This document shows, one piece after another, positions 2,670 through 13,754 of a stretch of DNA of 64,000 nucleotides. The notes beneath the pieces are model-generated. The model saw nothing but the letters and a program-made list of their open reading frames with translations, did not search any database and was not told the origin of the DNA. Numbering within the stretch: the first letter of the stretch is position 1; the number at the start of each line of letters is the position of its first letter. This DNA comes from Gammaproteobacteria bacterium (GTDB lineage Bacteria; Pseudomonadota; Gammaproteobacteria; Eutrophobiales; Eutrophobiaceae), in NCBI GenBank assembly GCA_965243205.1, contig CBDEUK010000002.1, forward strand, positions 96,001 to 160,000, written 5' to 3'. The position numbers were made by a program, and so were the translations under genes.

Positions 2670-3716
2670 TTGATTTATATGGATACTGCAATTTCAAAAA
2701 ACTTAATTGAAAAAAACGAACCGAATTCTGGCTTTCTTTATAAAGAGCGATTGTCGAATAAGGCTTATTTTGATTTGGCGATCGTTCTATTCATTAGTTT
2801 GGTTTTCCTATTATTTTCTATTGAATTCGATTTTTATGAAAAGGTATATATATGGAGTCGACAGTACGATCTTTTTGAAATTGATGAGTTATTGATCGCA
2901 ACGTTTATATTTTTTCCTGGTTTGATATGGTTCGCTATTCGTCGTTGGCAAGAAGCATCATTATCTTATAAAAAAAGTAATGAAGCTTTTCATGCATTAG
3001 AAAAAACACAAGTAAACTTGCAGAAGACGTTAAAGGAAAATCGTTCATTAGTAAAACGTTTAGATAAAATTCAAGAAGAAGAGCGTCAGAGAATTGCTGT
3101 GGATCTTCATGATATATTTGGACAGCATTTAACGGCTATTCATGCCAATGCATCAACTCTGCAGTTAAAACTGGATAAAAATGAAAATTTAAAAACATTA
3201 ACCAAACGAATTTCTTCTAGCTCTGAACAGCTGTCTCAGTTAACACGATTAATGTTCAATGAATTAAGACCGCCTGTTTTGGAAAATATTGGTTTAACTG
3301 CAGCATTAAAAAACTATATTTCAAATTGGTTAGAAAGCCATCATGAATATAAAGTGGAATTTAATTCTGAGGGCTGCGACAAAAATATACCTATATCTAA
3401 AGGCTTAATATTATATCGTGCTCTGCAAGAAGCTCTAACTAATATTATCAAACATTCTAATGCAAAAAATATTCAAGTTAGTATTAAACATGGAATTATG
3501 GAATCAAAAAATATTGATTCTTATACAGTTCTTGAGATTGTTGATGATGGAGTTGGGTTTGATAATGCATCACAAAATTTAGGGCTTGGTTTAATCGGAA
3601 TGCGAGAAAGAGTATTGAATTCTAATGGGGAATTTAAAATAGATTCTAAGAAAAAGATTGGTACACGCATATGGATGAAAATTCCAGAGAAATATCAGGG
3701 GGAATATGATGAATAA
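2670..3716 (+). CDS. Sensor histidine kinase, NarX/UhpB (HisKA_3) type, two TM helices
   Basis: EEERQRIAVDLHDIFGQHL H-box, QEALTNIIKHS N-box, DDGVGF, GLGLIGMRERV; real start may be ATG 2679. Confidence 0.93.
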   Translation: MIYMDTAISKNLIEKNEPNSGFLYKERLSNKAYFDLAIVLFISLVFLLFSIEFDFYEKVYIWSRQYDLFEIDELLIATFIFFPGLIWFAIRRWQEASLSYKKSNEAFHALEKTQVNLQKTLKENRSLVKRLDKIQEEERQRIAVDLHDIFGQHLTAIHANASTLQLKLDKNENLKTLTKRISSSSEQLSQLTRLMFNELRPPVLENIGLTAALKNYISNWLESHHEYKVEFNSEGCDKNIPISKGLILYRALQEALTNIIKHSNAKNIQVSIKHGIMESKNIDSYTVLEIVDDGVGFDNASQNLGLGLIGMRERVLNSNGEFKIDSKKKIGTRIWMKIPEKYQGEYDE

Positions 3717-4398
3717 TACTATTTCAATTTTATTAATTGATGATCATCAGATTGTTTTAGAAGGTTATCGTAATTTATTTGAAGCAGAAGGATTCAATGT
3801 CGTTGCTACATGTGAAAATGCAATGGATGGTTTTGAAGCCTATAAACAATTTAACCCAGATGTGACATTGTTGGATATTTCAATGCCAGGGAAGAGTGGT
3901 CTAAATTGTATCGAAATGATTTTAGGCTTTAATAATAAGGCAAAAGTTATATTTTCAACCATGTATGATGATATTGAACTTGTTGTGCAAGCGATGAAAT
4001 TAGGTGCAAAGGGGTTTGTGACAAAAGTTAATCCTATTGAAACATTAACTTCAGCAATAAAAAAAGTTTATGAAGGTGGTTTTTATTTAAGCCCTAAACA
4101 TGCTCACTCTATTGCGATATTAAATGATGAGATTTCAAAATCTAATAATAATGGGCAAGATACTTTTAAAGTTTTAGATTCTCTTACTGAAAAAGAAATA
4201 ACAATTGTAAAATTAGTAGCTAGTGGAATGGAGACAAAAGAAATAGCTAAGGAAATTGGACTGTCATCAAACACAATAGCAAATTATCGTTCAAAGATTA
4301 TGTCTAAATTAAAAGTTAAGAACTCAAGAGAATTAACGGTTTTTGCAATTCAAAATGGACTTTCAGAATCTGGTGAAGAATTAATTGCCGCAATATAG
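3706..4398 (+). CDS. NarL/LuxR-family response regulator
   Basis: LLIDDH, LLDISMPG receiver; LTEKE..G..KEIA HTH; overlaps kinase stop. Confidence 0.95.
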   Translation: MMNNTISILLIDDHQIVLEGYRNLFEAEGFNVVATCENAMDGFEAYKQFNPDVTLLDISMPGKSGLNCIEMILGFNNKAKVIFSTMYDDIELVVQAMKLGAKGFVTKVNPIETLTSAIKKVYEGGFYLSPKHAHSIAILNDEISKSNNNGQDTFKVLDSLTEKEITIVKLVASGMETKEIAKEIGLSSNTIANYRSKIMSKLKVKNSRELTVFAIQNGLSESGEELIAAI

Positions 4399-4409
4399 AG
4401 ATAAAAAAT

Positions 4410-4850
4410 ATGAATTCTATCTATATACACATATTTAAAATAATTTCATTATCGATTTTATTAAGCCTAATAAACGTAGCTAATGCAAAAGGTAATTTAA
4501 TAGCGCGTTGTGAAAAATTAGATGGCCAAGTTTTAGGTGTTGATGATTCAGGGTTTGAAGTGAAAAATTCTGTTTATAAAATTGAAACAGGAAAATGCTA
4601 TAAGTTGACAATTCATTCTACTGGAAAACATGAATATATTTTAGAAGGTGCGGATTTTTTTTCTAATATCTTTATAAGGAAATTAGACATAGGAAAAATC
4701 GAATTGAAAATAAACAGTCTCCATTCAATCGACTTTGATGATGAAGTTTCAGCAAAGCTCTATTTCTTACCAGTAAAGCCTGGCAAATACACGATTTATG
4801 ATAAATATATGTCTGATAAAGGTACTCAATTTGTTTTTGAAATAGAGTGA
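4410..4850 (+). CDS. Exported cupredoxin-like protein associated with PQQ dehydrogenase loci
   Basis: Signal peptide; ETGKCYKLTI..FF..I..IDFDDE..LYFLPVKPGKY pattern. Confidence 0.55.
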   Translation: MNSIYIHIFKIISLSILLSLINVANAKGNLIARCEKLDGQVLGVDDSGFEVKNSVYKIETGKCYKLTIHSTGKHEYILEGADFFSNIFIRKLDIGKIELKINSLHSIDFDDEVSAKLYFLPVKPGKYTIYDKYMSDKGTQFVFEIE

Positions 4851-4853
4851 TTT

Positions 4854-4942
4854 AGGTAAATTTCCGAGTCATTCCTGGAATTTTTCTTATTAAATACAAG
4901 GAAGTTTATACCTATTATTAAAAACTCTGAGTGAAATAATAT
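4854..4942 (+). promoter_or_regulatory. Triple operator array and putative activated promoter
   Basis: AGG-N7-CCG 4854, TGG-N7-CTT 4876, AGG-N9-CCT 4899; AT-rich -10-like AATAAT/TAATAT at 4935-4942. Confidence 0.55.
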
Positions 4943-4945
4943 TAA

Positions 4946-5030
4946 TGGCCCTAATATAACCTCACTCCTCTAGTATTATTTATATGAAAGGCTGTCTAAT
5001 GATGCCTCTCATCTAGAGAGGCATCATTAA
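4946..5030 (+). ncRNA. Candidate small RNA (or structured 5' UTR) with an anti-SD loop and a 14-bp hairpin
   Basis: Stem TAATAT/GTATTA (4952-57/4973-78) encloses the ACCTCACTCCTC loop; perfect stem TAATGATGCCTCTC/GAGAGGCATCATTA 4997-5029. Confidence 0.45.
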
Positions 5031-5070
5031 CTATTAAACGTTATGAAATTCACTTATTAATCAAACCATA

Positions 5071-5430
5071 ATGAAAATAACTATTAATAAAATTATTATA
5101 TCCATGCTTATCTTTCTGTATACAAATTTTTGTTTTTCAATTGAATCTCCCAATGAATATCCAACCAGTTGCCAAGAAGCGATTGACTTAGTGGTAGAAA
5201 ACATTGATGAAGAAAGTAAAAAGCTTCTGCTTTCTATCGAAAAAGAAGAACTGCAATCCAGACGTTTTATTACAGGTTGGGGTAAAGGAATACGTGATGG
5301 ATTTGGCTTAACAGAAGGAAATTTTGAGTTGATGGAATCTTGTCAGGCTTTACGAGAAGATGCTGCTTTTCATCCAATTAATATTTCTGGAATCATCATG
5401 GAAGAAGTCTGGCAGGCTCTAAGAAAATAA
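5071..5430 (+). CDS. Exported protein, DUF6794-like
   Basis: Signal peptide; GWGKGIRDGFGL..N..L..HP..IS..I..VW pattern. Confidence 0.6.
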   Translation: MKITINKIIISMLIFLYTNFCFSIESPNEYPTSCQEAIDLVVENIDEESKKLLLSIEKEELQSRRFITGWGKGIRDGFGLTEGNFELMESCQALREDAAFHPINISGIIMEEVWQALRK

Positions 5431-5483
5431 TTATTAATCATTATTTTAGTGGCGGGAATAACTTCTTAAAATCATAAATAGTT

Positions 5484-5550
5484 TGGGTTTTTTTCCCAGC
5501 CGTATTGAGGTAAAACTTACCTTATTACTTGATCCAAATACTCCTATTCT
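5484..5550 (+). promoter_or_regulatory. xoxF promoter with paired palindromic operators
   Basis: TGGG-T7-CCCA 5484-5498; perfect AGGTAA-aac-TTACCT 5508-5522; -10-like TATTCT 5545-5550. Confidence 0.6.
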
Positions 5551-5707
5551 TCAAAACTGCAAAAGCCTTCGGGTTATCTTCTTAAAGATTCAACCATATA
5601 GCTTAAATGCTAGATGTTAAATCAGAAAGAAGCTTTGCAAACCTTACGTAAATATTTCTAGAAATATTTGTACATAACATAACAATAGTAACTGGAGGGT
5701 AGTTGAT

Positions 5708-7669
5708 ATGTTTAATCACTCATATCTGCACCGGATTGCTGCAACAGCTTTAACCGCAGCACTATGTTTAACCGGCGCAAACGCTGGGGCGGTAACTGCA
5801 TCTGAAGAGATTGATGCACGCGCGGAAAACCCCAATCTTTGGCCAGCTCCTGGTCGAGATAATCAATTAACACGCTATAGTAAGTTGGATCAAATCAACA
5901 CAGCTAATGTTAAACGACTTAACTATGCATGGAGCCAATCAACCGGTTCTCTACGTGGTCATGAAGGCCAGCCTGTAGTGGTTGAAGTTGATGGAACACC
6001 AATGATGTATTTTTCAAGTAGTTGGCCAAACATCATTCAAGCTTTAGATTTAACCGATCCTGATAATCCAAAGCAAATTTGGAACTATGAAAAACAAACT
6101 GACCGTGATGAAACTGCAGTACCTCGTGCTTGTTGTGACGTTGTACACCGTGGTGTTAACTATGCAAAAGGCATGGTTATCTTCCATACATTAGATGGAT
6201 TCATCATTGCATTGGATGCAAAAACCGGTGAAGAAAAATGGGTAACCAAACATGCTTATCCGCCTAAAGGTGAAACTCATACTGGTCCTACCATTATTGC
6301 TGAAGACTTAGTCATTGGTGGTTTCGGTGGTGATGAGTTCGCTGCGCGTGGTCGTATGGTTGCTTATGACATTAATACTGGTAAAGAAGTATGGAAATGT
6401 CATTCAACTGGTTCTGATGATGATGTTTGTATGTCTAAAAACACCAACAAAGCGAATCCACACTTTGGTACATACGGTAAAAACCTAGGTATCAACTCTT
6501 ACCCTGAAGGTGAGTGGAAAATCGGTGGTGGTGCTCAATGGGCATGGTTATCTTATGATCCAAAACTAAAAATCGTTTACGCTTCAACTGGTAACCCAGG
6601 TCACTGGAGTCCTTCTTACCGTTGTGGTTACACTGGCGATGATCTTACTCATGAAAAGTGTAACGATGGTAAATACGACAACAAATGGTCAATGACCACA
6701 TTTGCTCGTAAAGTTGATACTGGTGAAGTTGTTTGGGCTTATCAAATGACTCCATTTGATCAATGGGACTATGATGGTGTAAACGAAAACATCTTAGTTG
6801 AAATGGAAATCGATGGTGAGAAAAACCGTCCTGTTCTAGTTCACTTCGACCGTAATGGTTTCGTATATGTTCATGACCGTCGTGATGGTACTTTATTACG
6901 TGCTCACAAATTTGTGACCGTAAACTGGGCTGAGAAAGTTGATCTTAAAACAGGTCGTCCTGTTAAAGTGAAAAAACACTCTCCTTTCGCAGTAGGTGTT
7001 AACACTCAAGCTTGTCCATCTGCTATGGGTGGTAAAGACCAACAACCATGTTCAGTCGATCCTAATGAATCTCATATGTTCTACTGCCCAACTAACAACT
7101 GGTGTATGGAAGACGAACCTCAAAAACGTACTCATACCCAACAAGGTACTGTTTATGTTTTTGCAAACGTTTACATGTATCCTGAAGTTCCAGGTATTAC
7201 CGGTAAGATCAAAAAGTTTGATGTTCGTACTGGTAAAACAGCTTGGGAAATTCCTGACCCATATCCAAACTGGGGTGGAACTATGGTCACAGATGGTGGC
7301 TTAATGTTCTACGGTAGTAAAAGTGGACACTTCCGAGCTGTTGACCGTAATACCGGTAAAGTTGTTTGGCAGCGTAAATTAGGTTCAGGCATCATCGGTA
7401 ATCCTATTACATGGAGTGTTGAAGGTAAGCAATACATTTCAATCTTTGCTGGTTTAGGTGGTTGGATTGGCTTACCAGTAACTGCTGGCCTTGATATGGA
7501 TGATAAATATGGTGCTATTGGTGCTACTGCTATGGCGAAAGCTACCGGGTTAAATAAGATCCCTCAAGGTGGTGAGTTATATACTTTTCGTTTGTTTTCT
7601 CCAAATGAAGGTTTAACAAATGTGCCTCAGCCAGTAATGCCTGATGAAGCACAAGTAGTATCACAATAA
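5708..7669 (+). CDS. xoxF: Lanthanide-dependent PQQ methanol dehydrogenase, XoxF1-like
   Basis: Signal peptide; vicinal CC (RACCDVV); GDEF Glu, TGNP Asn, WDYDG with the extra Ln-binding Asp; WSQSTG.LRGHEGQP and TDRDE.AVPRACCD segments recalled as XoxF1-type; SD GGAGG. Confidence 0.92.
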   Translation: MFNHSYLHRIAATALTAALCLTGANAGAVTASEEIDARAENPNLWPAPGRDNQLTRYSKLDQINTANVKRLNYAWSQSTGSLRGHEGQPVVVEVDGTPMMYFSSSWPNIIQALDLTDPDNPKQIWNYEKQTDRDETAVPRACCDVVHRGVNYAKGMVIFHTLDGFIIALDAKTGEEKWVTKHAYPPKGETHTGPTIIAEDLVIGGFGGDEFAARGRMVAYDINTGKEVWKCHSTGSDDDVCMSKNTNKANPHFGTYGKNLGINSYPEGEWKIGGGAQWAWLSYDPKLKIVYASTGNPGHWSPSYRCGYTGDDLTHEKCNDGKYDNKWSMTTFARKVDTGEVVWAYQMTPFDQWDYDGVNENILVEMEIDGEKNRPVLVHFDRNGFVYVHDRRDGTLLRAHKFVTVNWAEKVDLKTGRPVKVKKHSPFAVGVNTQACPSAMGGKDQQPCSVDPNESHMFYCPTNNWCMEDEPQKRTHTQQGTVYVFANVYMYPEVPGITGKIKKFDVRTGKTAWEIPDPYPNWGGTMVTDGGLMFYGSKSGHFRAVDRNTGKVVWQRKLGSGIIGNPITWSVEGKQYISIFAGLGGWIGLPVTAGLDMDDKYGAIGATAMAKATGLNKIPQGGELYTFRLFSPNEGLTNVPQPVMPDEAQVVSQ

Positions 7670-7693
7670 AACTAATTTAATTAGTTAATTGTA

Positions 7694-7723
7694 AATGGTC
7701 GGCGCCTTTTGGCGCCGGCCATT
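7694..7723 (+). terminator. GC-rich hairpin between xoxF and xoxJ (attenuator or 3' stabiliser)
   Basis: AATGGTCGGCGCC-TTTT-GGCGCCGGCCATT followed by CTTCGTTT. Confidence 0.8.
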
Positions 7724-7758
7724 CTTCGTTTGTAGAATTAGAAAGGGGTAGGTGTGCT

Positions 7759-9576
7759 ATGCAAACAGATTTAATAAAAAAAATAATTATAATCTCTCTT
7801 TGTATTTGTTTTTCATTATCTATTGAAGCACGTAATCGTGAATTCAATTCATATCGTTATCAAAAAAACTTTGATGAATTAACTCAAGCAGAACATACAA
7901 AAGCCAAGCGAACTGCAGCTACGGCTGACATTCGTCCATTAATAGCCTGTGCCGATCCAGGTAACATGCCAATGTCGAATATGAAAGAAGAAGGTTATGA
8001 TAATCAGATCATAAAATTGTTGGCTGAATCTATGGGGACTACTGTTTCATTTTTTTGGCGTCCATATTTAGAACGTGGATTGAATCGAGAAACATTTGAT
8101 AACAAAGAATGTGATTTATTGTTAGGGATGCCTCATGGCTATAATCAATTATTAACTACCGATCCGATATATAGAAGTACTTATGTTTTTGCCTACCGTG
8201 AAGATAAAAATTACAAAATAGAAAGTTTAGATGAACCGATTCTTTCTGACTTAACGATTGGAACTTATCAGCATTCAGGACTTCGTGAAGCATTAAGCCG
8301 ATACGGTCATACAAACAATATTGAAGTGCACGTCATACGACAAGACACAGATCTAGTTCCAGAGACACAACAATGGCGTCAAGTGCAAAAAGTAGCTGAT
8401 GGTAATCTTGATATAGCAGGTGTTTGGGGGCCATTTGCAGGCTATGTCAAAACAGTTAAAAAAGAGCCATTAGTGATTCAACCTGTGAATATGATGGAAG
8501 ATAAAACACCTTTAGAATTTTCTTTATCAATTGGAATGCGTGAGAAGGATGTTATATTAAAATACGCATTGGATCTGGCAATAGAAAAAAATGCTGAAAA
8601 AATTGAAGAAATTCTTAAAGGATTTGGCGTGCCTTTGGTTTCATGTAGTGATTGTTTTATTCAAGGTGATATTCCTTCACATGGCTCTTATTATGAACGT
8701 TTTCTAGCAGAAGCTAAGTCTCGTTATTTAGAACCTATAGAAGAAGATTTAAAAACATTGGATGAAAGTAAAGCCAGCGCTGATCAAGTTGTTACAGAGG
8801 AACGTATAGAAAATTGGTTAGAAGAGGGTGCTGATGTTAATGATGAATTGGCTAATGCGGTTTTAGCAGGTGACCCAAAAAGAATTAAATTTGTTCTCGA
8901 CCATGGGGCGAATATTAATCATATTAATGCACAGGGCTATGGCTTATTGCATGAAGCTGCGCGGTATCGAGATTCAGAAACATTGCAATTGTTACTAGAC
9001 CTTGGAGCTAACCCTGATATTCAAGACATTAATGGTTGGACACCACTTATTCATGCAGCTTATAGAAACCATGTTCCTTCGATTGAGATATTAGTGAATA
9101 AAAATGCAAATCTTGAGCTAACAACAAAAAATAATTATACGGCTTTAGCAATTGCTTTAGGTGAGCGAAAATTTTGGGCAACACGTGCCTTAGTTGAAGC
9201 TGGAGCAAATGTTAATGCACTAATTGGTGATAAAAATATGACACCATTAATGATTGCAGCGATTCATCACAAATCAAAAGATCGAGAAAAAAATATCATT
9301 GAGGGTACTGAGCCTATTGATATTGCTAAATTACTACTTGAACATGGCGCTAAGATAGATGCGCAAACTACGCATGGGGAAACTCCCGTTATGTTTGCTG
9401 CTGCACATGATAATTCACCAATCATCGCTTTTTTAGTTGAGAATGGTGCTGATTTATTAATTAAATCAAATTCGGGTGAGACTGCTTTAGATGTTGCAAA
9501 AGAAAATCGTAGTGATGGAGCTATTAAATCCTTGGAATTGTTTATGAGTTTAAACAAAACCAAGAGTAAAACTTAA
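7759..9576 (+). CDS. xoxJ: XoxJ/MxaJ-type periplasmic binding protein fused to C-terminal ankyrin repeats
   Basis: CADPGNMPMSN..GYDNQI, ECDLL, IYRSTYVF, VWGPFAGY; then several ankyrin repeats (GWTPLIHAA..N, GETPVMFAA..D, GETALDVA). Confidence 0.85.
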   Translation: MQTDLIKKIIIISLCICFSLSIEARNREFNSYRYQKNFDELTQAEHTKAKRTAATADIRPLIACADPGNMPMSNMKEEGYDNQIIKLLAESMGTTVSFFWRPYLERGLNRETFDNKECDLLLGMPHGYNQLLTTDPIYRSTYVFAYREDKNYKIESLDEPILSDLTIGTYQHSGLREALSRYGHTNNIEVHVIRQDTDLVPETQQWRQVQKVADGNLDIAGVWGPFAGYVKTVKKEPLVIQPVNMMEDKTPLEFSLSIGMREKDVILKYALDLAIEKNAEKIEEILKGFGVPLVSCSDCFIQGDIPSHGSYYERFLAEAKSRYLEPIEEDLKTLDESKASADQVVTEERIENWLEEGADVNDELANAVLAGDPKRIKFVLDHGANINHINAQGYGLLHEAARYRDSETLQLLLDLGANPDIQDINGWTPLIHAAYRNHVPSIEILVNKNANLELTTKNNYTALAIALGERKFWATRALVEAGANVNALIGDKNMTPLMIAAIHHKSKDREKNIIEGTEPIDIAKLLLEHGAKIDAQTTHGETPVMFAAAHDNSPIIAFLVENGADLLIKSNSGETALDVAKENRSDGAIKSLELFMSLNKTKSKT

Positions 9577-10778
9577 TGAGATTAAGGTTTAATTCTCTAC
9601 TCATCTTAATTAGTTTCTTCTTTTTCAGTGGATTTATAATATCCGCTGAAAAAGAAGCTGTTTCTCATACGATAGTTTATTTGGGAAAGAAGTATGAGGA
9701 ACCACCACCGTTATCGTTATTGGAAAAGATATTAATCGATGAAGGTGTTCAAGGCTCTCGTCTTGCTTTAAAAAATACAAACTTAACTGGGCGTTTGCTC
9801 AATACTGAATTTAATCTAATTGAGAAAAAATTAGAACTTAATGAGTCACCTAAAGATGCATTCATCAATTTCATTAACTCTGGCTACAAATATTTTATCC
9901 TTGATCTAAATGCTGAGGATATATTAGGGATAACATCTTTAAATGAATCACAAGATACAATTTTAATTAATGTTAAGGCGGAAGACGATTATTTAAGAGT
10001 ATCTGAATGCAATTCTAGTTTGTTTCATGTGATACCTAGCCGAGCTATGCGTACTGATGCCTTGGCGCAATATTTAATTTGGAAAAAATGGCGATTATGG
10101 TTTTTAGTCAGTGGTAAGTATTCATCTGACGCGGCCTATGTTAATGCAGTTAAACGTTCTGCTAAACGTTTTGGAGGAAAAATTGTTGAAGAACGTTCAT
10201 ATAAACTTGAAACAGGAAATAATCGCGTAGACAGCGGCCACCAACAAATACAAACTCAAATGCCAATGTTAACTCGTAATGCGAAGAAACATGATGTTGT
10301 GTTTGTGGCGGACGAGAACGAATCTTTTGGTCTTTATTTGCCTTATAGGACAGCAGAACCAAGACCTGTTGTTGGAACTTATGGTTTAGTTGCAACAGCT
10401 TGGCATCGTTCTTATGAACAATATGCAGGCACACAGATGCAAAACTCTTTTGAAGAATTTTCTGGAAGGATTATGACTGAAAAAGATTATATGGGATGGC
10501 TAGCTTTAAAGATTATTGGAAAAGCTGTTATGCAATCGAAATCTTCAGATATTAAATCGCTTAAAGATTACATGATATCGGAAAAATTAAGTTTGGCAGC
10601 ATACAAAGGTAGGCCATTAACATTTCGCCGTTGGAATCAACAAATGCGTCAACCATTACTCATATCAAGTGATAGAGCATTAGTTACAATGGCACCTTTA
10701 GATGAATTTTTGCATCCAAAATATTATACGGACACGCTTGGTTTTGATGAAAAAGATTCAGAATGTAAATTAAATTAA
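9576..10778 (+). CDS. ABC substrate-binding protein, PQQ-dehydrogenase-associated (PedA2/LutA-like)
   Basis: HVIPSRAMRTDALAQYL..KKW, FG.YLPY, AWH..YEQY, YKG..LTFR.WN.Q.RQP, DTLG.D..S.C. Confidence 0.88.
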   Translation: MRLRFNSLLILISFFFFSGFIISAEKEAVSHTIVYLGKKYEEPPPLSLLEKILIDEGVQGSRLALKNTNLTGRLLNTEFNLIEKKLELNESPKDAFINFINSGYKYFILDLNAEDILGITSLNESQDTILINVKAEDDYLRVSECNSSLFHVIPSRAMRTDALAQYLIWKKWRLWFLVSGKYSSDAAYVNAVKRSAKRFGGKIVEERSYKLETGNNRVDSGHQQIQTQMPMLTRNAKKHDVVFVADENESFGLYLPYRTAEPRPVVGTYGLVATAWHRSYEQYAGTQMQNSFEEFSGRIMTEKDYMGWLALKIIGKAVMQSKSSDIKSLKDYMISEKLSLAAYKGRPLTFRRWNQQMRQPLLISSDRALVTMAPLDEFLHPKYYTDTLGFDEKDSECKLN

Positions 10779-10800
10779 TTTAGTTTAAAAAATTATAATT

Positions 10801-11769
10801 ATGAAAATATTAATAAAAAATAAAATCGTAATTTCATTATTGCTCTTTAGTAGTCAATTAACGGCAGGTACCTTATTTGTTTCTAATGAACGCGACAATA
10901 CAGTTACTGTTGTCGATAGTGATACTTATGAAATTATTAAAACTATTAAAACTGGACGAAGACCACGTGGTTTAATTTCTTCTCCAGATGGTAAAGAGAT
11001 TTTTGTTTGTGTTGGGGATGACCATAGGATTGATGTAATTGATGTTGCTACGTTAGAAATCTCAAGAGAACTGAGTTCAGGACCTGATCCTGAATTATTA
11101 GATGTTGATCCTGTAGGAAATCGTATTTATATAGCAAACGAAGATGATGCTATGGTTACCGTTTTGTCTATAAAAGATAATGAAATGTTAGCAGAGATCC
11201 CGGTTGGGGTTGAGCCTGAAGGTATGCGCGTCCATCCAAATAATAAATTAACCGTAGCGACATCAGAAGAAACCAGCATGGCGCACTTTATTGATACCGA
11301 ATCATTAGAGCTAAAGGCAAATATACTTGTCGATACGCGTCCTCGACATGCTGAATATACTAAAGATGGTAAACAAGTATGGGTTTCTTCAGAAATTGGT
11401 GGCACGGTTTCAATTATAGATATAGAACAACAAGCCATTGTTCATAAAATCATATTTGAAATAGATGGTGTGCGCTCTGAATTAATTCAGCCTATTGGTA
11501 TGCGCATGTCGAAAGACGGCAGTATGGCATTTGTTGCCTTAGGGCCAGCGAATCGTATTGCCGTTGTTGATACCAATAGCTACGAAGTTAAAAAATATAT
11601 TCTAGTTGGCCAAAGACCTTGGCATATAGAAATTAACCCTGATGGTAAATCACTCTATGTTGCGAATGGACTTACCAATGATATGACTATTATTGATCTA
11701 GAGTCACTTAAAGCGAAAAAATCAGTACCCGTAGGACGATTGCCTTGGGGTATTGCTTACGTGGATTAA
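10801..11769 (+). CDS. YVTN beta-propeller protein, PQQ-catabolism associated (PedA1/LutB-like)
   Basis: FVSNE.DNTVTV, GRRPRG, SGPDPE, VGVEPEGM, VG.RPW repeats. Confidence 0.9.
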   Translation: MKILIKNKIVISLLLFSSQLTAGTLFVSNERDNTVTVVDSDTYEIIKTIKTGRRPRGLISSPDGKEIFVCVGDDHRIDVIDVATLEISRELSSGPDPELLDVDPVGNRIYIANEDDAMVTVLSIKDNEMLAEIPVGVEPEGMRVHPNNKLTVATSEETSMAHFIDTESLELKANILVDTRPRHAEYTKDGKQVWVSSEIGGTVSIIDIEQQAIVHKIIFEIDGVRSELIQPIGMRMSKDGSMAFVALGPANRIAVVDTNSYEVKKYILVGQRPWHIEINPDGKSLYVANGLTNDMTIIDLESLKAKKSVPVGRLPWGIAYVD

Positions 11770-12086
11770 TGAATATTAGTTTTAAAATTAGTATTTCTAT
11801 TTTTTTATTGATTGTATCTTTTAAACTTATATCAGAAACCAACCCTTGGTCTTAGCCGATATGGAAAATCCCACCTTTACCGACTAATCCAAATGCAGAA
11901 TTTGATAGCCATGATCCTTATGGGTTAAGTGTTGGTTTGTATATAAAAACCGATTGTTCTATACGTTTTGTTTGGCATGGAGATAACAAAATTTATTGTT
12001 TTAATAGTTTAACATCGAAATCATTTTTTATAGATAATCCTAAAAAGTATATTGATAGTTCTAATGCATTCTTAAATTCTCAATAG
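11769..12086 (+). pseudogene. YHS-like small exported protein interrupted by one in-frame TAG (codon 29)
   Basis: ATG overlaps the upstream TAA (TAATG); MNISFKISISIFLLIVSFKLISETNPWS*PIWKIPP..AEFDSHDPYGL..DCSIRFVWHGDNKIYCFNS..SF F..NPKKYI; TAG at 11853-11855. Confidence 0.7.
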
Positions 12087-12108
12087 CAATTATTGCTAAA
12101 TAAAGATT

Positions 12109-12166
12109 ATGAATTTTTCACAGTTGACCAGGGAAAAAAACATAAAACATTTATTATTTACTCATA
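12109..12166 (+). promoter_or_regulatory. Triple operator array upstream of xoxG
   Basis: ATG-AATTTTT-CAC 12109, GGG-AAAAAAA-CAT 12131, ATT-ATTTACT-CAT 12153; 22-bp period. Confidence 0.55.
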
Positions 12167-12245
12167 AATCAATATTTAACGAATTATTGTAGTATCGCTC
12201 TTGTCATAAAAAGACGATATGTAAAATAATATATTGAGGTGAACA

Positions 12246-12788
12246 ATGAAGTCGAATAATTCGTTGAGTAATAGTTTTATAAAAATATTTATCGCTTGCT
12301 TTTTACTCGTTCCTTTTTCTATCAATGCTTCTAGTGCAGAAAACACTGAAGCAGAAGCAAAATCTTCTGACTCTTCGAGCGTTGATATTCTGTCAATGAC
12401 ACCTGCAGAAGTAGTTGAAAAAATTCCACAAGGAGAAATCAAAAGCCCTTTCGTGCCGACAGATGCAAAAGTAGCTGAAGAGGGTCATACAGTATTTATG
12501 GAAACAAGTTGTAACGGTTGTCATGGTGGTACTGGTGGCGGTGGCATGGGACCTCCATTATCAAATCAAAGATGGGTATATGGAAATGATGTTGATACTT
12601 TATTCCGTCTTATTACTTTGGGTACTATTGAATTACAAGCAAAAGGTTATACCCGTAAAGCACGTGAAAATGTTCGAGCGCCTATGCCAGCACAAGCTTC
12701 TGGTGCAATTGTAATCGAAAGTCTTACCACTGAAAGAATCTTGAAAATCATTAATTGGATTCAATCACTACACGTTGATAAAAAATAA
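12246..12788 (+). CDS. xoxG: Cytochrome cL-type electron acceptor XoxG
   Basis: Signal peptide; CNGCH heme motif, GGGGMGPPL, W.YG, distal Met MPA; SD GAGGT. Confidence 0.88.
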   Translation: MKSNNSLSNSFIKIFIACFLLVPFSINASSAENTEAEAKSSDSSSVDILSMTPAEVVEKIPQGEIKSPFVPTDAKVAEEGHTVFMETSCNGCHGGTGGGGMGPPLSNQRWVYGNDVDTLFRLITLGTIELQAKGYTRKARENVRAPMPAQASGAIVIESLTTERILKIINWIQSLHVDKK

Positions 12789-12801
12789 TAATTAAAAAAT
12801 A

Positions 12802-12833
12802 AGCGTCTTAGTTTTATATAAAATTAAGACGCT
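12802..12833 (+). terminator. Hairpin after xoxG
   Basis: AGCGTCTTAGTTT...AAATTAAGACGCT. Confidence 0.6.
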
Positions 12834-12926
12834 CTAATTTATAAGAACTATCTTGGAGGAGTGTTTATGAGATGTCTAATACTCTTTCTAATTTCTCCAT
12901 GAATTATAACTATAACGGTAGTATTT

Positions 12927-13754
12927 ATGTTTTATATATTCTTAAAAAAACAATATGAATTTTCACATTTATTTTTAACATGTTTAATTTTCATTTCGTC
13001 AGTTATGCCAATCAAATTAATTGCTAACGATAATATAGAAATCATTTACTATGGCCATCGTGATGAAATGGCATTTATAGGGCTAGGGCAGGGCTTAGAA
13101 GATAGCAGTGAAAAACATGGGGGTTTAAAATTTAGACTGAACACTGAATTAGAAAACTTTCGACCTTATAAAGATCCGAAAGTCGATGCACTGTTTGTTT
13201 CAATGGGTGTTGAGGCGATTCGAATATTAAGTATGTTGAATCCTCAAATACCAATTTTTAATTTGGTTGACGATTCAGAAGAAATTAGAAGCATGTGCTT
13301 ACCTAATGTTTTTCATTTGCTGCCTTCAAAAAGCATGAGAGGGAAAGCTATTTCTGAATGGAAACAGAAAAATTCAGATGAATCTAATACTTCATTAGAT
13401 GCTAAAGCATGGGATCCTACTTTTAATGACGGTAAAGCCTATGTTCTCAATATTAAATTTAAAGAAAAACGTTCTATTGAATTATCTGAGCAAGGCTGGG
13501 CTGGATGGGTTGCTGCAACGGCGCTTTCTGATGCACTAGTAAAATCTAAAAAAGACAATTCAAATATCATTGATATTCTGAAAAATGATTTCAATATAAA
13601 CGTTTATAAAGGTATTGATTCCCACTTTGGCAAAGATGGTCAATTAAAACAAATTGTTCTTATAAAAAATGAAGAAAAGGTAGTCGGTCAAATACCAGTT
13701 AAAGATAGTGGAAAAGATACATTAGATTCTATTGTTGAAACATATTGTCAGTAA
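12927..13754 (+). CDS. Shorter paralogue of the PQQ-associated ABC substrate-binding protein
   Basis: IFN..D..IR..C.PNVFHLLPS..MR, AW.P, GWAGWVA, YKG...F...GQLKQ shared with 9576..10778. Confidence 0.7.
   Translation: MFYIFLKKQYEFSHLFLTCLIFISSVMPIKLIANDNIEIIYYGHRDEMAFIGLGQGLEDSSEKHGGLKFRLNTELENFRPYKDPKVDALFVSMGVEAIRILSMLNPQIPIFNLVDDSEEIRSMCLPNVFHLLPSKSMRGKAISEWKQKNSDESNTSLDAKAWDPTFNDGKAYVLNIKFKEKRSIELSEQGWAGWVAATALSDALVKSKKDNSNIIDILKNDFNINVYKGIDSHFGKDGQLKQIVLIKNEEKVVGQIPVKDSGKDTLDSIVETYCQ

Follow-up and report, generated by a model that had tools for sequence, protein, structure and literature searches.

The 220-nt intergenic region at positions 4851-5070 of the window (the whole stretch of DNA analysed here, C2:96001-160000, 64,000 nt of a 2.79 Mb genome with 36.7% G+C, referred to as G000) holds an element, E1, that may be a regulated small RNA (sRNA) with an anti-Shine-Dalgarno (anti-SD) motif, encoded by a rare island built around a XoxF-type dehydrogenase gene, xoxF; we put the probability of this reading at about 40%. 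The unit, consisting of upstream boxes, a CU-rich motif and a strong hairpin, is conserved in the relatives that carry the island (G014 and G015), and the hairpin covaries between the three genomes. The CU-rich motif is complementary to SD regions of XoxF-type dehydrogenase genes, and in a ranking of start regions across the genome two genes resident outside the island occupy places 1 and 3. The parts of E1 and its promoter region are as follows.

4854-4865, + strand: upstream box 1, AGGTAAATTTCC, inside a block conserved with G014 and G015 (alignment A5)
4876-4889, + strand: upstream box 2, TGGAATTTTTCTTA, aligned to GAAAAATTCTCAAT in G014 and G015
4899-4913: box 3, the AGG-N9-CCT palindrome AGGAAGTTTATACCT, a candidate response-regulator operator
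4937-4942, + strand: -10-like hexamer TAATAT, 23 nt 3' of box 3
4947-5030, + strand: E1, a predicted non-coding RNA of ~85 nt (RNAfold fold; covariance model R1), single copy
4947-4993, + strand: stem-loop 1, with a closing stem (4947-4950 with 4990-4993) around the CU-rich motif
4958-4973, + strand: CU-rich anti-SD-like motif AACCTCACTCCTCTAG, the candidate seed, aligned to GACCTCCTCCTC in the E1 of G014
4997-5029, + strand: perfect 14-bp hairpin, arms 4997-5010 and 5016-5029, loop 5011-5015 (AUCUA)
5508-5522: second AGG-N9-CCT palindrome, in the island xoxF promoter, kept as AGGTATTTATTACCT in G014

An earlier note on this DNA had proposed an sRNA that lies behind its own triple operator array and folds into a stem exposing a CU-rich run, followed by a perfect hairpin. 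The three boxes lie where the note had placed them, at 4854, 4876 and 4899, all within blocks conserved in the two relatives, and the fold is likewise borne out. RNAfold predicts for 4946-5030 a weak outer stem followed by the 14-bp hairpin, with an energy of -29.6 kcal/mol (z = -5.4) that none of 200 shuffled sequences matched; the minus strand of the same segment folds no worse (-33.9 kcal/mol). The CU-rich run proper spans 4960-4971, and the seed of G000, CCUCACUCCUCU, is situated in a weakly structured region of ~35 nt closed by the 4-bp stem. An equivalent of this closing stem is predicted by RNAfold in all three E1 copies, although the one-sided changes that it displays lend it weak support. 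The spacing of the promoter elements suggests that the transcript would start at ~4947-4950.

The AGG-N9-CCT palindrome of box 3 recurs in the promoter of the island xoxF gene, where TATTCT (5545-5550) follows 22 nt 3' of the palindrome with identical spacing in G014. Because the palindrome is common to both promoters, that of E1 is probably served by the two-component system encoded in the island. The note had argued for a common layout in which an N7 box precedes the N9 box; this holds for the N9 palindrome, but the N7 part consists of one GGG-T7-CCC palindrome whose spacing is not kept in G014. In addition, the pattern AGG(A/T)A-N7-CCT does not exceed chance, with five matches on both strands (3 loci) against 1.95 expected, a number reached by 8 of 100 shuffles. 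E1 matches only itself in the 2.79 Mb, and a repeated or mobile palindromic element, of the repetitive extragenic palindromic type, was rejected on the finding of a single copy in G000. An Rfam scan of 3500-13500 at E up to 10 gave 13 matches, none of them over 4851-5070. No conserved small open reading frame (ORF) was found in E1 on reading the three genomes, the frames present (4 and 10 codons in G000, 26 in G014 and 9 in G015) being impossible to align.

Conservation of E1 and a sister unit in island-bearing relatives

In G000 the region that holds E1 separates a gene for a 146-amino-acid (aa) protein from a DUF6794 gene. A plain DNA search with the 220 nt retrieved from 61 genomes, outside G000, just pieces of 15-45 nt (best E 0.0025), because in G014 and G015 these two genes are separated by extra genes. 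Sensitive local blastn aligned window positions 4900-5038 with the intergenic region 5' of soxYZ-DUF6794 in G014 (60% over 143 nt, E 3e-4), and the unit is co-linear in G000, G014 and G015 (alignments A2, A3 and A5). E1 is therefore homologous in all three island-bearing genomes, which answers the question of conservation that the earlier note had raised. The common order comprises the three boxes, the -10-like hexamer 22-23 nt further on, the CU-rich motif (AACCTCACTCCTC in G000, GACCTCCTCCTC in G014), an AGGCT block and the long hairpin. Box 3 corresponds to GGGAAGATAACACCT in G014, and its G015 counterpart has decayed.

Covariation, which the note had put forward as a check, is present in the hairpin: across the three genomes its 14 pairs are kept, 4 of them being altered on both sides, and 97.5% of the aligned cells are paired. 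The observed values were reached by 11 of 500 shuffles, and sliding the 3' partner left 35-52% of positions paired. Two G-U pairs in the G015 hairpin are compatible with the + strand only. As the three genomes are related, the covariation rests on few independent events. Among 126 genomes of the family, covariance model R1 matched only G000, G014 and G015 (E 1e-11 to 1e-15), and models R1 and R2 together found no further members, the next-best matches having E 0.02-0.96. Five of the six next-best matches resemble ordinary terminators; the sixth, in G033 (E 0.28), has a CU-rich run.

The E1 hairpins of G014 and G015 have U-rich tails and pass a terminator-like scan, which on the element strand accepts four of the five units (E1 and E2 of both genomes, E2 being the sister unit described below). 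In G014 the intergenic region around E1 is divergent and no gene on the E1 strand precedes the unit, and therefore the hairpin is not a protein-gene terminator there. The view that it terminates the 146-aa gene was rejected, since in G014 and G015 that gene is directly followed by other genes and the hairpin is 3.4 kb away. A motif of the ACCTC-CTCCTC type is present in four of the five units, the decayed E1 of G015 lacking it, and RNAfold predicts it to be unpaired or weakly paired; a conserved single-stranded seed, as expected of a trans-acting sRNA, is thus found.

A second unit of like build, E2, is located between DUF6794 and the island xoxF in G014 and G015. A promoter is followed by the motif (T/A)(G/A)ACCTCCTCT and 20 nt of AU-rich spacer, and the unit closes with a canonical intrinsic terminator, a GC-rich hairpin and its T-run. 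The E2 promoter is homologous to the xoxF promoter of G000, and in G014 displays an AGG-N9-CCT palindrome with TATTCT 22 nt later. G000 is without E2, model R2 giving no match at E up to 1. Intact CU-rich units are thus E1 in G000, E1 and E2 in G014, and E2 in G015; as E2 is intact in G015 where E1 has decayed, every island-bearing genome retains at least one of them. Directly 3' of the E2 terminator, G014 (L021:8818-8850) and G015 (L022) carry A(A/G)GGAGTTTATATCTGA, which resembles box 3 and may mark a second xoxF promoter.

The island genes of G000 that surround E1 are listed here.

2670-3716: histidine kinase
3706-4398: NarL/LuxR-type response regulator
4410-4850: 146-aa ORF, no Pfam match
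4851-5070: the 220-nt intergenic region holding E1, between the 146-aa ORF and the DUF6794 gene
5071-5430, + strand: DUF6794 gene (Pfam PF20594, E 1.9e-7), with a signal-peptide-like N-terminus and no visible SD
5708-7669, + strand: island XoxF-type pyrroloquinoline quinone (PQQ) dehydrogenase, methanol/ethanol family (TIGR03075; 552.9 bits, cut-off 480)
between the island xoxF and the cytochrome c gene: ankyrin-repeat protein, periplasmic binding protein and beta-propeller protein
12246-12788: cytochrome c gene ('xoxG')

The island dehydrogenase and two resident paralogs elsewhere on C2 have a WDYDG motif, which we take to be the mark of XoxF-type, lanthanide-dependent enzymes. The island protein is 83% identical to the G014 copy and 82% identical to that of G015. 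Few genomes have the island: among the 126 of the family, the 146-aa protein occurs in three (G000, G014 and G015), a scan of a genome contig collection returned nothing beyond G014 and G015, and a scan of a metagenome contig collection gave zero matches. G001, of the same genus, lacks the island, its best match to the island dehydrogenase being 42%. The gap between the 146-aa gene and DUF6794 extends over about 4.3 kb in G014, where six extra genes encode a MotA/ExbB-like protein, two unknowns, a Sel1 protein, a DUF3108-like protein and a SoxYZ fusion, and over 3.5 kb in G015, where there are five ORFs and SoxYZ is absent. In public sequencing data the full stretch is present in four DNA runs that represent one sample, probably the one this DNA came from, and contigs cross the region unchanged, which has no bearing on expression; about 5% of the sampled words of window positions 4400-7700 are also present in X5, a DNA run from an unrelated coral metagenome, a match that carries no information on habitat. 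The leader of the island xoxF contains a perfect 20-nt palindrome, AAATATTTCTAGAAATATTT, at 5651-5670, ~40 nt 5' of the start codon. It may serve as an operator or fold into an RNA hairpin, and it has no counterpart in the xoxF leaders of G014 and G015.

Predicted pairing with dehydrogenase start regions

The targets named in the earlier note were the ribosome-binding regions of the island xoxF and xoxG, with a further site downstream of xoxG. The three duplexes described there exist.

5684-5699, + strand: island xoxF SD region, duplex of -15.0 kcal/mol
12224-12240, + strand: xoxG SD region, duplex of -10.5 kcal/mol
12853-12863, + strand: third site, TTGGAGGAGTG, the strong SD of ATG 12867, duplex of -16.4 kcal/mol

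The genome-wide ranking that the note had suggested was run with RNAduplex energies over 2697 start regions (-40 to +20), delimited in G000 alone by a crude heuristic of ORF plus SD. Queries were the 85-nt element, its 52-nt 5' part and a 26-nt core (4957-4982). A crude accessibility correction was limited to the 1228 start regions whose duplex was at least as strong as -9 kcal/mol. The island genes were placed as follows.

85-nt element: xoxF rank 972, xoxG rank 1898 of 2697
52-nt 5' part: xoxF rank 238, xoxG rank 1048 of 2697
26-nt core: xoxF rank 40, xoxG rank 458 of 2697
26-nt core, accessibility-corrected: xoxF rank 263, xoxG rank 236 of 1228

These data show that the island xoxF and xoxG pairings are not enriched, and the targets named in the note are not upheld. 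Of the xoxF duplex, the relatives keep only the SD/anti-SD core of 6-8 nt and not its AU-rich extension. The third site gives -27.0 kcal/mol with the 50-nt 5' part of E1, and -17.2 kcal/mol with the 26-nt core, dropping to -4.0 kcal/mol after accessibility correction. Within 12853-12930 the SD GGAGGAG and ATG 12867 open an 11-codon frame, MRCLILFLISP, that ends at TGA 12900-12902 in frame with a periplasmic-binding-protein-like ORF (12927-13754), which has a poor SD at its own start; the frame may represent that gene's start in broken, read-through or mis-assembled form.

With the 26-nt core in G000, the start regions of the two resident XoxF-type genes, C2:209642 and C2:539765, rank 1 (-24.5 kcal/mol) and 3 (-22.7 kcal/mol) of 2697, and 1 and 5 of 1228 after accessibility correction. 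Among all genomic windows with a 7-mer seed, self excluded, the two sites are 3rd and 8th. The uninterrupted Watson-Crick runs formed by each intact unit are listed below; in every one of the three genomes the resident genes outpair the island xoxF.

G000 E1: 9 and 8 nt to resident starts, 6 nt to the island xoxF
G014 E1: 14 and 12 nt to resident starts, 7 nt to the island xoxF
G014 E2: 10 nt to a resident start, 7 nt to the island xoxF
G015 E2: 10 nt to a resident start, 8 nt to the island xoxF

The 14-nt run of the G014 E1 extends to the AU of the resident start codon. Conservation of the resident start region, AGAGGAGGAGGT(C/T)ATG, reaches across genera, and the region contains an unusually long SD. 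Ten of 20 dehydrogenase 5' regions, from 16 genomes, have GAGGAGGAGGT(C/T) abutting the ATG, and four more have close variants; one variant, AGAGGAGTGAGGT of G028, complements window positions 4959-4971 exactly. The 12-mer GAGGAGGAGGTY occurs 3, 6 and 3 times in G000, G014 and G015, respectively, one of the G014 sites being E1 itself, and the sole gene starts at which it occurs are those of resident PQQ dehydrogenases. Matches in the flanks (CTAG, GTC/GTTA and the AT of ATG) are suggestive, although they are not statistically secured. It should be noted that the start of the resident PQQ dehydrogenase genes, ...CATGATCAAC(T/C)AAAT-AGAGGAGGAGGTCATGAGTAAA, displays nucleotide conservation across many genera beyond what an SD needs.

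From these features we infer that E1 is transcribed, with the ends given above, and acts in trans. A promoter with three conserved upstream boxes would drive the short RNA, the adjacent NarL/LuxR-type two-component system being the candidate activator. The CU-rich motif would be exposed in the weakly structured region, while the strong hairpin would end or stabilise the RNA. Pairing of the motif with strong SD regions would block ribosome access and initiation, and the prime candidate targets are the mRNAs of the two resident XoxF-type dehydrogenases, ahead of the island xoxF and xoxG. Hfq is encoded in G000, G014 and G015. The more elaborate proposal that E1 and E2, co-activated with the island XoxF, shut down translation of resident XoxF, and hence constitute an RNA switch between methanol dehydrogenase paralogs, is unlikely on present data.

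If the switch did operate, an acquired island would take over the one-carbon (C1) oxidation step of its host, and the conserved resident start AGAGGAGGAGGTCATG would be a hub at which CU-rich RNAs exert regulation. For XoxF-type, lanthanide-dependent methanol dehydrogenases, the control described so far is chiefly transcriptional. Should the E1 RNA be real, the choice between dehydrogenase paralogs would gain a post-transcriptional level of control, and E1 would exemplify how a metabolic island acquired by horizontal transfer can bring along a riboregulator. A full-text literature search, with supplementary sRNA lists outside its scope, returned no paper that describes a native sRNA with xoxF or mxaF as its target; in the relevant passages of PMC13348613, sRNA refers to synthetic tools.

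Weighing the alternatives

Several observations weigh against E1 being an sRNA that acts on the resident genes. Among public sequencing runs, no RNA run on record contains the stretch, and a sigma-70 consensus scan did not call the proposed promoter. The hairpin occupies a terminator position but has no U-run in G000, where a terminator scan of 4300-5800 returned 0 sites, confirming the caveat of the earlier note that the U-tail is weak; 88 of 261 strong hairpins that follow genes in G000 likewise have three or fewer T in the 10-nt tail. The unit is carried by only three genomes, all kin and two of them metagenome-assembled, and the G015 copy of E1 no longer has box 3 or the CU motif, soxYZ being missing there and DUF6794 shortened to 51 aa. 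The position of E2, between a promoter and xoxF, is that of a leader. Further points concern the pairing. The anti-SD tail of 16S ribosomal RNA (13 of 14 letters verified), used as a control, places the resident starts at ranks 6 and 24 of 2697, because their SDs are the longest in the genome. Of 63 genomic 26-mers containing an 8-nt piece of ACCTCCTCCTCT, a set that includes the antisense strands of the two resident start regions, 11 put both resident starts in the top 5, and over the whole set the median ranks of these starts are 15 and 22. Complements of 9 nt to the resident starts occur at 162 loci that are intergenic by crude gene calls. In view of these three controls, the preference for the resident xoxF genes is real as a prediction and largely generic to CU-rich RNA.

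E1 and E2 might instead be cis-acting 5' leaders or attenuators, E1 for the DUF6794 operon (soxYZ-DUF6794 in G014) and E2 for the island xoxF, the hairpin being a conditional terminator or stabiliser, any short RNA a by-product, and the C-rich, G-poor motif a protein site, for example for Rho or an antiterminator. Such a role, the main rival reading, is somewhat unlikely. It would explain why each unit is preceded by a conserved regulated promoter and followed by a gene on the same strand, and the decay of E1 in G015 alongside its downstream genes fits a function in cis. Read-through into DUF6794, which starts 41 nt beyond the hairpin, is plausible because the G000 hairpin is without a U-run, and the G000 xoxF would be expressed from the homologous promoter without E2. 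Inspection of the five sequences, however, revealed no conserved alternative (antiterminator) pairing, and Rfam gave no leader or riboswitch match. Masking by the CU motif is difficult to envisage when downstream SDs are weak or absent, the duplexes reaching -5.6 kcal/mol for DUF6794, whose start region pairs poorly with both E1 and the 16S tail, and -5.4 kcal/mol for soxYZ. Moreover, soxYZ of G014 is preceded, 3' of the E1 terminator, by a promoter-like site (7346-7373), and past the E2 terminator both G014 and G015 carry the operator-like AGGAGTTTATATCT.

It is distinctly unlikely that there is no regulatory RNA at all, the hairpin having only a structural or terminator role at the edge of an operon or at a rearrangement scar, with an incidental CU run. 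G000 does lack the roughly 4.3 or 3.5 kb of genes seen in G014 and G015 exactly at the junction where the element lies, CU-rich 8-mers occur 63 times in the genome, and no RNA family matches. Against this, boxes, CU motif and hairpin are co-linear in G014 away from the junction with the 146-aa gene, the stem is kept by compensatory changes, and E2 repeats the build. An sRNA specifically tuned to the island xoxF and xoxG, as the earlier note envisaged, is more doubtful still. The duplexes that it requires can form, xoxF reaches rank 40 with the 26-nt core, and E2 pairs with the island xoxF SD over 7-8 nt in G014 and G015; these points are outweighed by xoxF ranks of 238-972 with longer queries and xoxG ranks of 458-1898 overall, by ranks of 263 and 236 after accessibility correction, by the unconserved AU-rich extension, and by the resident genes being better partners in every genome. 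What stands of the proposal in the note is a candidate sRNA with its own regulated promoter, supported by homologous boxes, motif and hairpin in three genomes, four compensatory pairs and E2, and what falls are its named targets.

Related CU-rich modules and known systems

Other CU-rich modules are present in G000 outside the window. One, at C2:2141590-2141720 (+ strand, L076:1290-1420), contains ATGACCTCCTCCTC, the same 12-mer as in the G014 E1 and the exact complement of the resident xoxF start, together with a small hairpin, a terminator-like hairpin with a CCCTCC loop and a T-run. A 406-aa ORF and a cytochrome c-like gene flank it, with no opposite-strand ORF after the 'SD', and a 77%-identical piece of it lies right 3' of the stop of a PQQ-dehydrogenase-like gene in G134. 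At C2:536690-536910 (+ strand, L029:3690-3910) a pqqA-like ORF, MKWETPAYSDIRFGFEVTMYINNK, has its own terminator, ~45 nt past which come AAATCCTCCTCATAT, a perfect 13-bp hairpin and TTTTATTT; this locus is ~0.9 kb from the resident xoxF-type gene b. A differing CU-rich sequence with a hairpin follows pqqA in G001. Across the family, DNA matches to the pqqA-linked module end by query position 132, none reaching the CU-rich module, and a CU motif within ~330 nt of pqqA was found in 8 of the 33 copies scanned (29 loci). Two further loci are at C2:758819 (+ strand), where CU-rich CTCCTCCTCTT precedes a 13-bp stem, and at C2:1841402 (- strand), where CU-rich CCCCTCCTCTAG precedes ACCGCCCTCGGGCGGT and TTTTATTT; at both, a strong hairpin with a U-rich tail comes after the CU-rich run. 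Rfam at permissive thresholds gave no match on three other CU-rich loci. Modules of CU-rich sequence plus terminator beside pqqA and PQQ-dehydrogenase genes would fit a switch between dehydrogenase paralogs.

Comparison with known systems places E1 and E2 near several types of regulatory RNA. Prematurely terminated leaders and riboswitches can give rise to sRNAs, and E1 and E2 resemble such RNAs in having a promoter, a structured RNA, a terminator and a same-strand gene, an arrangement that would permit output both in cis and in trans. They differ in that neither Rfam nor inspection detected a ligand-binding fold, a known leader family or an alternative pairing. Trans-acting sRNAs of the Hfq type typically have their own promoter, a 5' single-stranded seed and an intrinsic terminator. 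E2, as known from its sequence, has every part of this build: behind its own promoter come a seed in single-stranded form, an AU-rich spacer and a GC-rich hairpin followed by a U-run, whereas the E1 of G000 is without the U-run.

The closest known kind, the CcsR1-4 or 'Cuckoo' RNAs of Alphaproteobacteria, are described, in the parts of the source that concern them, as stress-induced RNAs with a conserved CCUCCUCCC motif in the loops of two hairpins, present in tandem copies beside a DUF1127 gene under RpoHI/HII control, and as tied to C1 metabolism via the FlhR mRNA (PMC8034643). As far as this description goes, E1 is similar in being a short RNA with a CCUCC-type anti-SD motif, adjoining a gene for a small protein whose function is unknown and either derived from an untranslated region or stand-alone. 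In contrast, E1 has a single motif, set in a large loop of weak structure, with one strong hairpin after it, is single copy rather than tandem, neighbours a Pfam-less 146-aa ORF and DUF6794, has a promoter with palindromes of the response-regulator type, and matches no Rfam model. Membership of the CcsR/Cuckoo family was therefore rejected on motif placement, gene context and family model, within the limits of that description. By analogy, E1 and E2 are best regarded as a separate family of the same general kind as the CcsR/Cuckoo RNAs.

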